This document shows positions 20-32,251 of a stretch of DNA of 64,000 nucleotides, piece after piece (position 1 is the stretch's first letter; each line of letters begins with the position of its first letter). The position numbers and the translations under genes were made by a program. This DNA is from an uncultured Eggerthella sp. (lineage in GTDB: Bacteria > Actinomycetota > Coriobacteriia > Coriobacteriales > Eggerthellaceae), in NCBI GenBank assembly GCA_900538545.1, contig UPYK01000004.1, positions 30,098 through 94,097 on the forward strand. Reading direction: 5' to 3'. The notes beneath the pieces were generated by a model that saw only the letters and a program-made list of their open reading frames with translations, searched no databases and had not been told where the DNA came from.

Positions 20-1003
20 TCAGCGCTTCTCCAGTTGATCAATGAGCGAAATGATCTCTCCATCTTCATCGAGACTCCATCGCATGGATGTATTTCCCTG
101 AATAGCATCAAGGAACGCCTCTAGTTCTGCTCGATAAGCGTCTTCCACAATGAAACGCGCATATCCATCAAGTTGGTCTGCGCTCTTACCCTCATAGACA
201 TCAATGTCGATCATCTCACGAGAATTCAAGTCGAGTTGTTTCAGTCCCATCGGTGAGCCATCCCACGTAATGAAACACTCTTCATTGGTGAAAGTAAAAT
301 CACGCACGGCAGTTCGGCATACAACATCGATCAACAACATGCCTATTGCGCCGCTCTTATGTTTAATCGCTATTGCAATCGCATCATTGTATGAAACATC
401 GAGCTTACTTATCTTTTGAGCAACGTGATAAGCCTCTTCGATCGGCCCAAAAGTTTTCACAAGCCAAGGCAATTCGATCGCAAGCAGTTCTCGTATACCA
501 CTTGTCCTCTCTTCTGCAACAAAAAAGCTCTTGTAATCTTCCCAAGGATGCCAATCAGGAAGGTACTGCCCAACGTGATACGTCCAGGCACCTCGCGTAC
601 CACTTTCAGCAACTATCTCCTGAATAGCCTCGATCTCTCGGCGGTACACGAATGTTGAAGAAGGAAACCAGATTAATTCATTTTCTTTCGCTTTGGCTAT
701 ATTCTGGACATAACCGTCATCTACAAGATTCAATTCTGTAAAAACATGCAGTCCATTATCCAAACAATCACTCACTATGCTTGCGTGAGATAGCGGACCT
801 GTGGAGATTACTGCTGCTTCTGGATTCACGGCAGCAACCGCTGCCTCAAGAGATTCATAGGTGGAGATGTCGAGCTCTTTTCGAGCTTGCGTTTGCCGCT
901 CTTCACTAAGATCAACGCCTACCACCTCTTGACCGCCTATTTCCTGTAGAAGTCGCGCGCGACGTCGTCCCATAGAGCCTAATCCGACTATCACTATACG
1001 CAT
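20..1003 (-). CDS. Gfo/Idh/MocA-family NAD(P)-dependent oxidoreductase, probably acting on a sugar or nucleotide-sugar
   Basis: N-terminal Rossmann motif IVGLGSMGRRR. Start taken at the internal ATG at 1003 with a GGGAGGAG RBS; the 352-aa ORF extends further upstream with no RBS. The stop is ~105 nt from rmlB in the same operon orientation. Confidence 0.7.
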   Translation of the reverse strand: MRIVIVGLGSMGRRRARLLQEIGGQEVVGVDLSEERQTQARKELDISTYESLEAAVAAVNPEAAVISTGPLSHASIVSDCLDNGLHVFTELNLVDDGYVQNIAKAKENELIWFPSSTFVYRREIEAIQEIVAESGTRGAWTYHVGQYLPDWHPWEDYKSFFVAEERTSGIRELLAIELPWLVKTFGPIEEAYHVAQKISKLDVSYNDAIAIAIKHKSGAIGMLLIDVVCRTAVRDFTFTNEECFITWDGSPMGLKQLDLNSREMIDIDVYEGKSADQLDGYARFIVEDAYRAELEAFLDAIQGNTSMRWSLDEDGEIISLIDQLEKR

Positions 1004-1126
1004 TTGATCTCCTCCCGAAGCATTCTCGCAAGCACTTTTATGATTGCTCAAAACTATTTCTTTACTAAAGCTGATCACTTAAGAGCATTGTGGGATCAAA
1101 ATGATCGAAGCTAAATTGAGCGAGAA

Positions 1127-2146
1127 TCATTCGCCTTGTTCGGTATAGCGTTTCTCAACAGCTTCCTTCATCTCAGTCCACCAAAACTCATTGCCCCTAT
1201 ACCAGCCAATGACGTCATGTAACTCAGCTGAAAAATCAGCGTGCTCAGGCATCCAGCCAAGCTCTGCTGTAAGCTTGGTCGCATCGATCGCATAGCGACG
1301 ATCGTGCCCGGGACGGTCTTTCACCCAGTCAAAATCATCAGTATCTTTACCCATCGCAACTAAGATTTCGCGCAATACTTCGAGATTGTTCTTCTCTCCA
1401 TTTGCCCCGATTAGGTACGTCTCGCCCAAACGCCCTCTCGTCAGAATGGTCCAAACTGCCGACGAATGATCATCAACATGAATCCAATCGCGCACATTTA
1501 GTCCATCGCCATATAACTTTGGCTTCAGTCCTGAAAGAATATTCGTGATCTGCCGTGGAATAAACTTCTCGATATGCTGACGAGGTCCATAGTTGTTCGA
1601 GCAGTTTGAAATGGTGACGGGCAACCCATATGTCCTATACCATGCACGAACAAGCAGGTCAGAAGCAGCCTTGGTAGAAGAATACGGACTGCTCGGATGA
1701 TAAGGCGTCTCCTCAGTGAACTTCGCAGGATCATCGAGTGCTAGATCTCCGTAAACCTCGTCAGTCGAGATGTGATGAAAACGCACGCCATGCTTGCGGG
1801 CCGCTTCAAGAAGCGTATAGGTGCCCTCCACATTCGTCCGGAGGAACGGAGCAGGATCTGCGATCGAATTATCATTGTGTGATTCTGCTGCAAAATGCAC
1901 AACAGCATCTGCATCAGCAAACAAAGAATCGACCAGAGCCGCATCGCAGATATCGCCCTCAACAAAGGTAAGACGATCTTCTGGAATGCCCTCGAGATTC
2001 GCACGATTCCCTGCATAGGTCAGCTTATCGAGCACCGTCACCTGGACATCAGGTTTATTCTGAACGACCCAATGCACGAAGTTCGAGCCGATAAAACCAG
2101 CTCCACCAGTAACGATGATTCTTTTTGGACTAAACTCTGAGGCCAC
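1127..2146 (-). CDS. rfbB: dTDP-glucose 4,6-dehydratase
   Basis: [15 protein letters not shown] motif, STDEVYG, the YxxxK catalytic pair, and full-length similarity to RmlB-type extended SDRs. Confidence 0.9.
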
Positions 2147-2280
2147 ACTTGATTCCTGATTCGCCCTACGCTTATGCGTTCTTCTTTATTTGCGACCGCA
2201 ACAAAAGCAGCCGCTCTGCTCCTGTTGCACGCAATTAAGCTCTTCCATTATAAACAAGCGTTCCCGAGCAGCCTTGAAAG

Positions 2281-3360
2281 CTATTTCTTTGCGATCTTTT
2301 TCGCAAGCCAAAAGGCTTTATACATACGTAATCTCAAAAGAGAAACAAGTATTGCCGAATTAGTACATCCAAGATGCGATATCTCAAGCGTCTTTGATGC
2401 ATCGAAATAAGGTGCTGATTTAGCGAGAGAAATGAATTCAGCATAACGATCAGATTCTGAAAGCGGGTTTTGTGGATTGAGGAAATAGGTTTCCATCGAC
2501 TTATTTAAGTAGATGAACTTGCGAAGACTAAGGCCTTTCCTGAAATTCTCCCCTTTGTTGTTCGCATCAATGAACGACTCGATCGCACGGTAAACATTTT
2601 CGTACTTCGAGAATGGCGCGCCACCGAATTTGCGCGTTATCGAATTGGGAACATGCCGATAAAAATAGGTTGGACAGGAGATATATGAAACAGACTCAGC
2701 TTTCTCTAATACATTCAAAATGAAGGTGCCATCATCGAACAAGCCCTGAAGTGAAGGGTCGAATCGTAAGCCGTTCTCCCTGATCAGCGATCGCTTTATA
2801 AGGTAATGCCATGCAGCTCCCACACCGCGAAGCATGACAACGGCATTTCGTTCGATACGCGCAGGACCCATGTTGAACACTGCAAGCTGCACTGCATCGA
2901 TCTCATCTCGCGATTTGGTAGAGAACTCCTGACTCGCAACTTGATAAGTTGTTTTTCGCGCTTCCGAAAATGCAATATAATCGCTCAGAACCACATCGAC
3001 ATGCGTCTCTTGAGCTCGTTCATAAAGAACCTCCATCGCGTTTTCAGCCAAATAGTCATCGGCGTCAAGCAAGAATACATACTCCCCCCGCGCCTTCGCT
3101 AATCCATCGTTTCGGGCAGCGCTTACTCCTTCGTTCTTCTTATGAATAACCGTGAAACGCTCGTCTTTTGCCGCAAAAGAATCTGCAATCGCGCCACTTT
3201 CATCGGGACTACCATCATCAACTAGGACTGCCTCGATGTTTGATAAAGTTTGAGCCTGGACGCTCTCCAAACACTGTTCAAGGTAAGGTTCCACATTATA
3301 GATGGGAACGATAATGCTTATGGCGGGTGTAGATGAGTTCACTGGCGCTATAACTCCCAA
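2281..3360 (-). CDS. family-2 glycosyltransferase
   Basis: N-terminal ISIIVPIYNVEPYLEQCLESVQAQT...VLVDDGSPD GT-A fold signature and a DAD motif (LLDADDY). Confidence 0.8.
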   Translation of the reverse strand: MGVIAPVNSSTPAISIIVPIYNVEPYLEQCLESVQAQTLSNIEAVLVDDGSPDESGAIADSFAAKDERFTVIHKKNEGVSAARNDGLAKARGEYVFLLDADDYLAENAMEVLYERAQETHVDVVLSDYIAFSEARKTTYQVASQEFSTKSRDEIDAVQLAVFNMGPARIERNAVVMLRGVGAAWHYLIKRSLIRENGLRFDPSLQGLFDDGTFILNVLEKAESVSYISCPTYFYRHVPNSITRKFGGAPFSKYENVYRAIESFIDANNKGENFRKGLSLRKFIYLNKSMETYFLNPQNPLSESDRYAEFISLAKSAPYFDASKTLEISHLGCTNSAILVSLLRLRMYKAFWLAKKIAKK

Positions 3361-3464
3361 GACGACGAAAAGCTTTTTAGCAGATTCGTTATAAACATCA
3401 AACGACTTTTCGAGTCTATTCCATTCTAAAGCACCGCTTCCGACAAATCGGAACTTGGCAAATT

Positions 3465-31043: not shown

Positions 31044-31124
31044 TAGCTCCTGTCTGTTGCCAGATATTTTGTTTAGTTGCGTTCATTCTGCATTTCTCTA
31101 TCTTGTGTAGTACGAATAAGCTTG

Positions 31125-31643
31125 TCAATTATTTTTATGAACCACTTCGAGGCCAATCGTTGCGGTTGTAGTTCTACCGAACATAGTCATTTCGATCAAT
31201 GCTCGCCTTTTATGTCGGTCGATCTTCTTGATGATCGCTTCCTGCCCGAATAACGGCCCTTGGGTAACCGTGATGGTCTCTCCTTCGATATAGCCCTCGC
31301 TCATGCGCACACAATAGGCATCATCAGTGAAGGCAACGATCCAGTCTTTCTCCTCTTCAGAAAGAGGCGTGATCTCATTCTTCTGGCCGTTCTGTCCCAA
31401 AAGGCGTGTAGTTGCTGGGACTTTCTTGAGTTCGCTCAGAAGCGCGAGGATCGAATCGGTGACCATGAACAGATACCCTGGAAAAAGCATGCGACGCACA
31501 CGCTTCCATTCTCCTTGGATCTTGCGCATCGTTTCGTATTCCGGAAGGAAAGCATCCTGCAGAATAGCAGGATCGATCATCTGTTTACACATATCTCGCA
31601 CGGCTACTTCTTGTCCGCTATTGACTTGAGCGACATACCACAT
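31125..31643 (-). CDS. NusG-paralog transcription antiterminator (UpxY/LoaP-like)
   Basis: NGN domain (MWYVAQVNSGQE..., LFPGYLFMV) and a C-terminal KOW motif (GETITVTQGPLFGQEAIIKKID). It is the first gene of the minus-strand glycan operon. Confidence 0.75.
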   Translation of the reverse strand: MWYVAQVNSGQEVAVRDMCKQMIDPAILQDAFLPEYETMRKIQGEWKRVRRMLFPGYLFMVTDSILALLSELKKVPATTRLLGQNGQKNEITPLSEEEKDWIVAFTDDAYCVRMSEGYIEGETITVTQGPLFGQEAIIKKIDRHKRRALIEMTMFGRTTTATIGLEVVHKNN

Positions 31644-32172
31644 GTCTGTTCCTATCCTCGGGCCAAAGCACCGTGTTTGCCGAGAGTCTTGCGTGCATAG
31701 CTTCGCCCTTTTCAGGGGTCTGAATCTTTCAACACGCTCTTCAAACTCTCACGGCTCACGAAACGCGCTTGGCGACGATTTCGATTCCTTAAGATATGTG
31801 CGCGCATCTTGCGAAATACTGCATCCTATATCTGGGCGCAGTTCGAGCAAGATACAACAATATATGGTATCAGTTCATAGGTTTTCGGTAAACAAATTAG
31901 GGCTTCTACCAGCCAAACGGCATGCTTAGCTGCGTTAGTTTCACAGCTTGATGCGCAAGTGCTCCATCTTACGAAAATGCGCATGTAAAAGAAGCAGGAT
32001 TGGCGTAGCTGTAGCATGAAAACGGCAGCTCGGAGGCCGCCGTTTGAAGGATAAATAATGCGAGGTCCACGGTTGATGCACCACTTCGTTGCTTTGGTTG
32101 CGCGATTACAGCGCCATCCTGCGTCGAACGAAACCGATCTTTTCTAGCTTCTTAAAGGTGAAGACTGGATAC
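31644..32172 (-). promoter_or_regulatory. promoter and ~0.5 kb 5' leader of the glycan operon
   Basis: Non-coding stretch between the upstream terminator and the NusG-paralog start. The composition change between the two halves of the window falls here. Confidence 0.3.
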
Positions 32173-32210
32173 AAAAAAAGCGGCCAGGGTTTTGCTTTAC
32201 CCTGACCGCT
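32173..32210 (-). terminator. rho-independent terminator of the SNF transporter gene
   Basis: 11-bp stem (AGCGGCCAGGG / CCCTGACCGCT, one mismatch), followed on the minus strand by a U7 tract. Confidence 0.55.
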
Positions 32211-32251
32211 CTGCGCATGCGTTGCTACGTTGAATCCGCTCTTTCGCTCGG

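Follow-up and report, generated by a model that had tools for sequence, protein, structure and literature searches.

We analysed a 64,000-nucleotide stretch of DNA from an uncultured Eggerthella sp. (contig UPYK01000004.1 of GenBank assembly GCA_900538545.1, positions 30,098 to 94,097 of the forward strand), hereafter called the window, the first half of which holds an AT-richer surface-glycan locus headed by loaP, the gene for a specialised NusG paralog. The locus is of an ordinary kind: a NusG-paralog-headed glycan operon that occupies one chromosomal site and is reshuffled between strains and species. We consider it probable that it belongs to a ~47-kb low-GC surface-glycan region containing a 29-gene operon of ~32.6 kb, that this operon is long resident and controlled by LoaP, and that its modules are exchanged by recombination. 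A preliminary description of the window had proposed a horizontally acquired surface-polysaccharide island at this place.

Gene content and limits of the locus

Genes were assigned using Pfam and NCBIfam profiles with curated cutoffs. The features of the locus, from its right-hand edge towards window position 1, are as follows.

32177..32212, minus strand: intrinsic terminator of the SNF transporter gene; a stem of 14 pairs, 8 of them GC, and then a T-run, 40 nt past the SNF stop codon at 32252
31933..32175, minus strand: strain-variable intergenic segment of 243 nt, directly after the SNF terminator
31735..31803, minus strand: conserved loaP-leader RNA element, supported by sequence conservation and covariation; proposed as LoaP recruitment site
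31125..31643, minus strand: loaP, specialised NusG paralog and first operon gene; NF033641 178 bits (cutoff 125), NusG N-terminal and KOW domains
30093..31043, minus strand: Wzz-like chain-length/co-polymerase protein; weak Wzz and MPA1/EpsF matches, all below cutoff
29108..30025, minus strand: RmlA, glucose-1-phosphate thymidylyltransferase; TIGR01207 461 bits (cutoff 361)
27988..29208, minus strand: DegT-family sugar aminotransferase, DesI-like (Pfam); its true start is probably further in, judging by the 363-393 aa called in neighbouring strains
26790..28055, minus strand: ATP-grasp ligase (Pfam), which probably adds an amino acid or acyl group to a sugar
25992..26768, minus strand: RfbF, glucose-1-phosphate cytidylyltransferase; TIGR02623 355 bits (cutoff 300)
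24897..25982, minus strand: sugar-1-phosphate nucleotidyltransferase with a CBS domain, PtmE-like by architecture (Pfam)
23989..24900, minus strand: NAD-dependent epimerase/reductase (Pfam)
22177..23958, minus strand: thiamine-pyrophosphate (TPP) enzyme of acetolactate-synthase fold (Pfam; all NCBIfam matches below cutoff), possibly a branched-chain-sugar (yersiniose-type) carboligase
20318..22135, minus strand: polytopic membrane protein of 605 aa, no family match
19291-20280, minus strand: LegB; TIGR04180 516 (cutoff 475)
18077-19249, minus strand: LegC; TIGR04181 467 (cutoff 420)
17379-18008, minus strand: NeuD/PglD-type N-acetyltransferase; TIGR03570 199.5 (cutoff 160.8)
16370-17386, minus strand: NeuB-type synthase; TIGR03569 465 (cutoff 400)
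15222-16436, minus strand: NeuC-type hydrolysing 2-epimerase; TIGR03568 436 (cutoff 236)
14174..15136, minus strand: GT2 glycosyltransferase with C-terminal membrane spans (Pfam)
13488..14177, minus strand: acetyltransferase-like protein; weak CysE/EpsC similarity
12132..13469, minus strand: second Wzx-like flippase; Polysacc_synt E 1.6e-5, below cutoff
10556..12112, minus strand: polytopic membrane protein of 518 aa, no family match
9706..10515, minus strand: initiating polyprenyl-phosphate phosphoglycosyl transferase; Bac_transf 163 bits
8417-9742, minus strand: L-amino-acid-ligase-type ATP-grasp (Pfam)
7347-8423, minus strand: ornithine-cyclodeaminase (OCD)/mu-crystallin-family enzyme (Pfam)
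6274-7344, minus strand: sugar-transfer-associated ATP-grasp (Pfam)
4910..6262, minus strand: Wzy oligosaccharide repeat-unit polymerase; TIGR04370 152 bits (cutoff 40)
3465..4922, minus strand: Wzx flippase; Polysacc_synt 107 bits
2281..3360, minus strand: GT2 glycosyltransferase (Pfam)
1127..2146, minus strand: dTDP-glucose 4,6-dehydratase, RmlB-like; GDP_Man_Dehyd and Epimerase families, the specific name being a prediction
20..1003, minus strand: Gfo/Idh/MocA oxidoreductase (Pfam); called product 327 aa, with the true start internal to a 352-aa open reading frame

By its gene content, the locus is a Wzx/Wzy-dependent heteropolysaccharide gene cluster. It encodes one initiating phosphoglycosyl transferase, two flippases, one Wzy, one Wzz-like protein, two GT2 glycosyltransferases, three ATP-grasp ligases and one TPP enzyme, together with dTDP-, CDP- and legionaminic-acid-type sugar modules. 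The flippases, polymerase and sugar-nucleotide pathways named in the preliminary description are recovered with Pfam and NCBIfam. All five enzymes of the legionaminic-acid-type nonulosonic acid module (15222..20280, minus strand) score above their NCBIfam cutoffs. The two ATP-grasp proteins and the OCD/mu-crystallin enzyme at 6274..9742 (minus strand) were read as a decoration block. The Wzz-like gene recurs as a gene of 315-324 aa after loaP in all relatives compared. The surface-polysaccharide assignment holds, but of the labels proposed earlier (O-antigen, capsule or exopolysaccharide) the first does not apply, because Eggerthellaceae are monoderms; the product is likely to be a capsule, exopolysaccharide or wall glycopolymer.

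The locus differs sharply in composition from the DNA to its right. In 2-kb sliding windows, GC content is 0.42-0.50 up to ~32 kb, where it steps up to 0.53-0.58 and stays there to 64 kb; overall it is 0.464 for positions 1-31650 and 0.557 for positions 32250-64000. GC content at third codon positions (GC3) is 0.35-0.57 (mean 0.468) in the 28 island genes and 0.57-0.77 (mean 0.685) in 18 flanking genes. Island and flank are fully separated by this measure (Mann-Whitney p = 1.5e-8), and the lowest island values (0.35-0.44) fall in the nonulosonic acid block. GC skew provides a second compositional contrast: on the plus strand it is -0.10 to -0.15 in the island (positions 1-32000) and ~0 across the co-oriented flanking genes (32000-58800), which makes the coding strand of the island G-rich. 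An AT-richer tract next to GC-rich DNA, as first proposed, is therefore borne out, and composition across the window is not uniform.

All 28 long open reading frames between 20 and 31643 lie on the minus strand, with intergenic gaps of -101 to +134 nt (median 19). The short or overlapping junctions seen at the outset are thus present, but almost every housekeeping gene of the flank (32252-58833) is on that strand as well, so a shared strand does not single out the island. The boundary had been placed at a terminator and a NusG-paralog gene, and both are found there (32212..32177 and 31125-31643). The terminator is that of the upstream SNF gene and would thus insulate the locus from read-through; it does not end the locus but marks its right edge. 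The paralog gene, taken at first as a landmark only, is the probable regulator of the operon. Within the flank, the truA open reading frame (window 33825-36002) has a long low-complexity Ala/Ser/Glu-rich C-terminal extension and overlaps the end of dnaE at its maximal length; the products called in relatives have 546-554 aa.

The other boundary was expected beyond position 1, and it lies ~15 kb further on. We followed the locus leftward on scaffold_8 of the European Nucleotide Archive analysis ERZ28574966, which is 100% identical to the window over 21125-41643 and 1-11003 (compared contigs and loci carry L-numbers, this left extension being L101). One further co-directional gene, for a Gfo-like protein of 306 aa, lies past position 1 and completes a probable operon of 29 co-directional genes and ~32.6 kb, of which the window holds the first 31.6 kb. 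Next are three sugar-nucleotide genes in convergent orientation, for an RfbH-like protein, a UDP-sugar dehydrogenase and an epimerase, and then ~10 kb of miscellaneous genes with a GC content of 0.37-0.43, including a frameshifted rmlC and a gene for a choline-binding-repeat protein. At a VanZ/RDD gene, ~15 kb to the left of position 1, GC content is back at 0.53-0.61. The low-GC tract therefore totals ~47 kb and is bracketed by SNF on one side and MaoC-dehydratase, VanZ-RDD and MFS genes on the other; another strain (L100) and a locus of different type (L114) have this left flank too.

Some variation was also seen within this far-left part. The gene rmlC, for a dTDP-sugar isomerase (L101 11889-12600, ~8.5-9.2 kb left of position 1), exists as frameshifted fragments in the strain type of the window (L094, L095, L101 and L105) and is intact in L114. 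A very low-GC part (0.37-0.40; L101 12581-17048 compared with L100) is swapped between strains, with radical-SAM/DUF5131 and hypothetical genes in one and helix-turn-helix and RhuM genes in the other, and a Cap4-nuclease gene occupies the corresponding place in L114 (13189-14199). This suggests a hotspot for defence and accessory genes adjoining the glycan locus.

LoaP and the leader RNA hairpin

Judged by its profile scores, the head gene is a bona fide loaP, encoding a NusG-paralog processive antiterminator: the product passes the LoaP model, whereas the NusG, UpxY and RfaH models all fall below their cutoffs. The closest solved chain is 8f5g_A. Genes for LoaP often adjoin polysaccharide operons (PMC12691694), and loaP heads a long same-strand operon in most of the 80 species loci that we compared. 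By analogy with characterised LoaP, the protein is the probable regulator of the whole operon. In Adlercreutzia sp. ZJ304 (L015 10001-11200), tandem NusG-paralog genes, whose products are 55% and 36% identical to the LoaP of the window, head a glycan locus.

Upstream of loaP lies an irregular hairpin of ~55 nt (31743-31797) with an invariant apex, AUCGUCGC-CAA-GCGCG, at 31764-31779. It is part of a block found ~100-150 nt upstream of loaP across Coriobacteriia genera, in which ACAUAUCUU on the 5' side is followed by AAUCGUCGC-N3-5-GCGCGUU and then by AGAGGAUGAAUAG on the 3' side. The proposed fold comprises an outer helix P1 (UCUUA/UGAGA), a GG/CC pairing, a second helix P2 (CGAAA/UUUCG) and the apical stem CG(U)CGC/GCGCG. 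The core pattern occurs once in the window (0.08 copies expected), and once per locus in 29/29 matching Coriobacteriia loci, always upstream of loaP and on the same strand.

Covariation supports the fold. The test used 16 sequences aligned with MAFFT, without fitting the alignment to the structure. The proposed partners pair in 85% of alignment cells, compared with 31-58% when partners are slid, and compensatory changes occur in 10/20 pairs. The covariation score is 0.309 as against 0.191 +/- 0.021 in shuffled alignments, with 0/500 shuffles reaching it. The apical stem is invariant and therefore adds no covariation signal. A 50-mer folded in isolation has the proposed structure as its minimum-free-energy fold (-15.3 kcal/mol); the single-sequence minimum-free-energy fold of the 166-nt leader does not reproduce the hairpin, and its z-score of -1.7 is not significant. 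A scan of the whole window at Rfam gathering thresholds returned tRNA-Pro only, and permissive Rfam scans of the loaP leader here and of one Lachnospiraceae leader gave no match.

The element extends beyond the Coriobacteriia. With a covariance model, the window gives a single hit (74 bits) and Firmicutes loci give weak ones, 8/10 of them just upstream of loaP. A relaxed core pattern, in which a G(C)CGCG 3' half is allowed, lies 105-401 nt upstream of loaP and on the loaP strand in 68/80 species from two phyla, with seven matches elsewhere in 1.27 Mb. These results overturned a motif restricted to Coriobacteriia, as the exact pattern ATCGTCGCN{2,8}GCGCG had indicated. The element is present upstream of loaP in Coriobacteriia, Lachnospiraceae, Erysipelotrichaceae and Clostridium. 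Its Firmicutes form, AAAUCGUCGC-UUCG-CCGCGUUU, very probably equates to the published UNCG-type leader element of Bacillus velezensis, and the form in the window is probably a clade variant of that element. The Coriobacteriia form is set apart by its NAAG loop, the extra outer helices P1 and P2, and the 5' ACAUAUCUU and 3' AGAGGAUGAAUAG boxes; relative to the B. velezensis hairpin its 3' half is also one nucleotide shorter.

In B. velezensis, LoaP requires and binds a UNCG-type leader hairpin, and brings about terminator read-through by antagonising NusA (PMC12691694). If the present system works likewise, transcription would start between the SNF terminator (32177-32212) and the leader hairpin, and the nascent leader RNA would fold into the conserved structure at 31743-31797. 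LoaP, made from the first gene of the operon, would bind the hairpin and then load onto RNA polymerase, and the polymerase would resist termination along the long AT-richer operon. The operon products would then build a Wzx/Wzy-dependent heteropolysaccharide (capsule, exopolysaccharide or wall glycan), with a predicted repeat unit containing a legionaminic-acid-type nonulosonic acid, dTDP-/CDP-derived deoxy or amino sugars, and amino-acid or acyl decorations.

Several observations weigh against parts of this scheme. The loop here is of CAA/NAAG type and not the UNCG type reported for B. velezensis. Promoter calls were at chance level, with none in the loaP leader, and the single operon is a prediction from gene spacing. 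Intrinsic-terminator-like sites within the operon are at the shuffled level (15 versus 12.8 and 23 versus 19.9), with none in the loaP leader; our guess is that LoaP counters Rho-dependent or non-canonical termination here. A sister lineage (L106-L109, SNF 86% identical) has a homologous operon with neither loaP, hairpin nor terminator, which begins 37 nt past the SNF stop codon (L106 1695-1733). LoaP is therefore dispensable for such a locus, and LoaP control can be lost naturally. On the biosynthetic side, no CMP-nonulosonate synthetase (LegF/NeuA, PF02348) is encoded in the window or in the left extension; one is present in the different-type locus L114 (3416-4831), and the gene may lie elsewhere in the genome. 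A CDP-glucose 4,6-dehydratase-like (RfbG-like) gene is missing here, though most conspecifics carry it. Of the CDP-3,6-dideoxyhexose/yersiniose pathway, RfbF is above its cutoff, the TPP enzyme passes no specific model, and the RfbH-like gene is found beyond the window, on the opposite strand. With neither the PF02348 nor the RfbG-like gene present, the sugar predictions are tentative.

Two other ways of reading the leader element were considered. Under the first, which we hold as a possibility only, the loaP leader element is a previously uncatalogued RNA family whose Coriobacteriia form may do more than recruit LoaP, for example as a pause or anti-pause signal or by binding a second ligand; the features that set this form apart are the ones listed above. 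The window would then offer a defined cis/trans pair for LoaP action in Actinomycetota, where intrinsic terminators are apparently not the target. Under the second, the cluster is neither one operon nor LoaP-dependent, loaP is an independent neighbouring gene and the element is a promoter or operator site in DNA; the lack of terminator excess within the cluster, the sister lineage devoid of both loaP and element, the invariant apical stem with no covariation of its own, and the ACATATCTT box, which could belong to a promoter, would all suit it, but ten compensatory outer-stem pairs, among them multi-position swaps (UCUUG/CAAGA versus CCCGU/ACGGG), the constant strand and the 105-401 nt spacing in 68/80 species, and the published binding of a leader RNA hairpin by LoaP (PMC12691694) make it highly improbable.

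Strain variation and origin of the locus

The site of the locus is constant in the species. In the assembly collection, 76 indexed blocks contain a LoaP of exactly this sequence, and LoaP is 99% identical in the species-representative metagenome-assembled genome (CATYMO010000001.1). The context of loaP was the same in 23/23 contigs read (cysS, a small NrdD-like gene, dnaE, truA, SNF, loaP, wzz, rmlA and so on), and a loaP-headed locus follows SNF in every conspecific contig read, that is, in the 23 and in additional contigs. Two sister lineages (SNF ~86-87% identical) have a related locus directly after SNF.

Sequence within this fixed site is a mosaic. DNA identity to the window is 94-97% in the housekeeping flank of conspecific contigs, and 70-91% overall in the island. 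In six strains the loaP-to-rfbF block (25992-31932) alone aligned, at 89.5-91%, while in seven further strains (L002, L003, L012 and L110-L113) the whole proximal 11-20 kb of the island aligned at 82-84.5%. The block 22262-25961 is ~72% identical to the window in 9/13 strains, a value close to the ~71% found for the island in a sister species with an SNF identity of 86%. Identity falls from ~90% to ~72% at the junction of rfbF and the CBS-nucleotidyltransferase gene (25982-25993), and it is between these two genes that most conspecifics carry the extra CDP-glucose-4,6-dehydratase-like gene (357-373 aa). In the species-representative genome (L014 13589-14854), the ATP-grasp protein is 69% identical to that of the window and the flanking genes are 96-100% identical; by its identity profile, this is a sharp single-gene recombination patch. 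Alleles of the TPP enzyme occur at 100, 96, 88 and ~75% identity. Exact products of the window's type are rare (4-10 blocks or contigs, versus 76 for LoaP and 25 for another TPP allele).

Gene order is kept among strains over the proximal 20 kb, where divergence is mainly in sequence, and gene content changes at particular points. The acetyltransferase-like gene (13488-14177) is absent from L110 and L113; in L114, a domain related to its product is fused to a CTP_transf_3 domain. The 243-nt segment at 31933..32175 is present in the window, L004, L006, L008, L010 and L013, and cleanly absent from L002, L003, L005, L007, L009, L011, L012 and L014. Repeats around this indel are short matches at the chance level, so that its interpretation as a miniature inverted-repeat transposable element or an invertible promoter is unsupported. 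Larger differences separate the sister lineages and locus types: in L099, gene order and content directly after SNF are not the same; in L096, of a third sister lineage, an extra transporter gene separates SNF from loaP; in L098, the glycan genes that follow loaP are an unrelated set; and L114 differs at its distal end. The loaP-headed loci of other Eggerthellaceae genera occupy other places in the genome. The preliminary description had asked whether this site is variable among related strains, and it is: flank and island differ in identity, genes are gained and lost, the sister lineages carry different content, and the relatives do not share one gene set.

The expectation of a horizontally acquired island held in part. 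A distinct composition and a variable glycan locus are present; a discrete, recent acquisition is not supported, given the lack of mobility genes in the window part, the same neighbourhood in conspecifics and sister lineages and a GC deficit that is generic. The last point comes from a survey of 40 species for which 10 kb of sequence flanked loaP on either side, in which the DNA downstream was lower in GC than that upstream in 37/40 species (mean -9.5 points, Wilcoxon p = 3e-10) and island GC was correlated with host GC (r = 0.69). A deficit so widespread, which tracks the host, is not simply the footprint of one AT-rich donor.

We therefore regard recent acquisition of a discrete island from an AT-richer donor, such as a gut Firmicute, as unlikely. 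Integrase and transposase genes, flanking direct repeats and an adjacent tRNA gene are all missing from the part of the locus in the window, the sole tRNA gene being 18 kb away, and no integrase was seen in the extension left of position 1 with its miscellaneous low-GC genes. The whole locus was not seen to be present in some relatives and absent from others: it stands beside SNF in all conspecific contigs read and in the same neighbourhood in the sister species, and only individual modules vary. The deficit in 37/40 species and its correlation with host GC are not expected from one AT-rich donor. For such a donor speak the 22-point drop in GC3 between non-overlapping gene sets and the G-rich island coding strand (flank skew ~0). 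Outside the clade, the closest homologues of the TPP enzyme that carry an organism name, at ~56% identity, are from Clostridium sp., and Lachnospiraceae share the loaP-plus-hairpin arrangement, which also speaks for such a donor.

An explanation without any transfer is likewise doubtful. Low GC in long glycan operons might be selected or mutational, for instance through low codon adaptation, or because AT-richness is tied to a termination-based silencing that the NusG paralog overcomes; either version seems to us improbable as the full explanation. The locus would then be vertical and merely fast-evolving. The roughly constant offset of ~-9.5 points from host GC across 40 species and the fixed site across related species are what such an intrinsic bias predicts, but it does not account for a block (22262-25961) in which 9/13 conspecifics with a 94-97% identical flank show the divergence of a sister species, for neighbouring genes that jump between 96-100% and 69% identity, or for gene content that differs between strains. 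The ~72% block, the abrupt switches of identity and the differences in content point to import of alleles and not to uniform fast evolution.

The reading that we favour, a long-resident locus with recombining modules, would place it between SNF and the MaoC/VanZ-RDD/MFS gene group over a long time, with modules exchanged by recombination among strains and sister species. Taken together, module exchange and an AT bias common to such loci account better for the step in composition than one recent insertion would.

Relation to known systems and biological meaning

The LoaP of B. velezensis reportedly acts by antitermination on the dfn and mln polyketide operons, work associated with Goodson in 2017 and with Elghondakly in 2021 and 2024. 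The present locus resembles those in that a LoaP-family NusG paralog adjoins a biosynthetic operon of great length and the 5' leader contains a short conserved hairpin. It differs in that the operon is for a polysaccharide, the host belongs to the Actinomycetota (Coriobacteriia), loaP is itself the first operon gene, and neither leader nor internal intrinsic terminators were detected.

RfaH is recruited by the DNA element ops and is encoded elsewhere in the genome. Like RfaH/ops of enterobacteria and UpxY/UpxZ of Bacteroides capsule loci, the system described here pairs a specialised NusG paralog with a long, AT-richer, horizontally exchanged surface-glycan operon. Unlike them, it involves a different paralog family, with the UpxY and RfaH models both below cutoff, and it has no UpxZ-like second gene. 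The locus also shares with Wzx/Wzy-dependent O-antigen and capsule loci, such as galF-gnd of Escherichia coli and the pneumococcal dexB-aliA locus, a fixed site, a GC content below that of the genome, and strain-variable, modular content of sugar-pathway, transferase, Wzx and Wzy genes. It is distinguished from these by its Gram-positive, anaerobic gut actinobacterial host, by the gene order kept over the proximal 20 kb, and by a control unit of its own made up of LoaP and hairpin.

A further comparison is with Eggerthella lenta, in which clusters for capsular polysaccharide are linked to loaP and affect phage sensitivity and evasion; that system switches by inversions of megabase size at a 16-bp inverted repeat, GATAAGCGCGGTTATG, with a LuxR-like regulator taking part (bioRxiv 10.64898/2026.04.24.720693). 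The window comes from the same family and has a capsule-type locus associated with loaP, with a likely role in surface variation and phage interaction. Variation here differs in being allelic mosaicism between strains, and the part of the locus inside the window lacks a LuxR-like gene. The 16-bp repeat has only three-mismatch matches in the window (3 versus 0.62 expected), inside genes or at gene junctions, and none in the compared loci; an inversion switch at this locus was rejected on that ground. One of the three-mismatch matches, GCCAAGCGCGGTTATT, falls exactly on the rfbF/CBS-nucleotidyltransferase junction, probably by chance.

Since the drop in GC is a generic signature of loaP-headed glycan operons in two phyla, the drop alone is not proof of recent acquisition. 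The most useful by-product of this work is the widely conserved loaP leader hairpin with its Coriobacteriia variant, which could mark LoaP regulons in searches. Surface glycans of gut Eggerthellaceae influence phage sensitivity and interaction with the host, and the window, from an uncultured relative, supplies the regulator, its leader element and strain-variable biosynthetic modules together.

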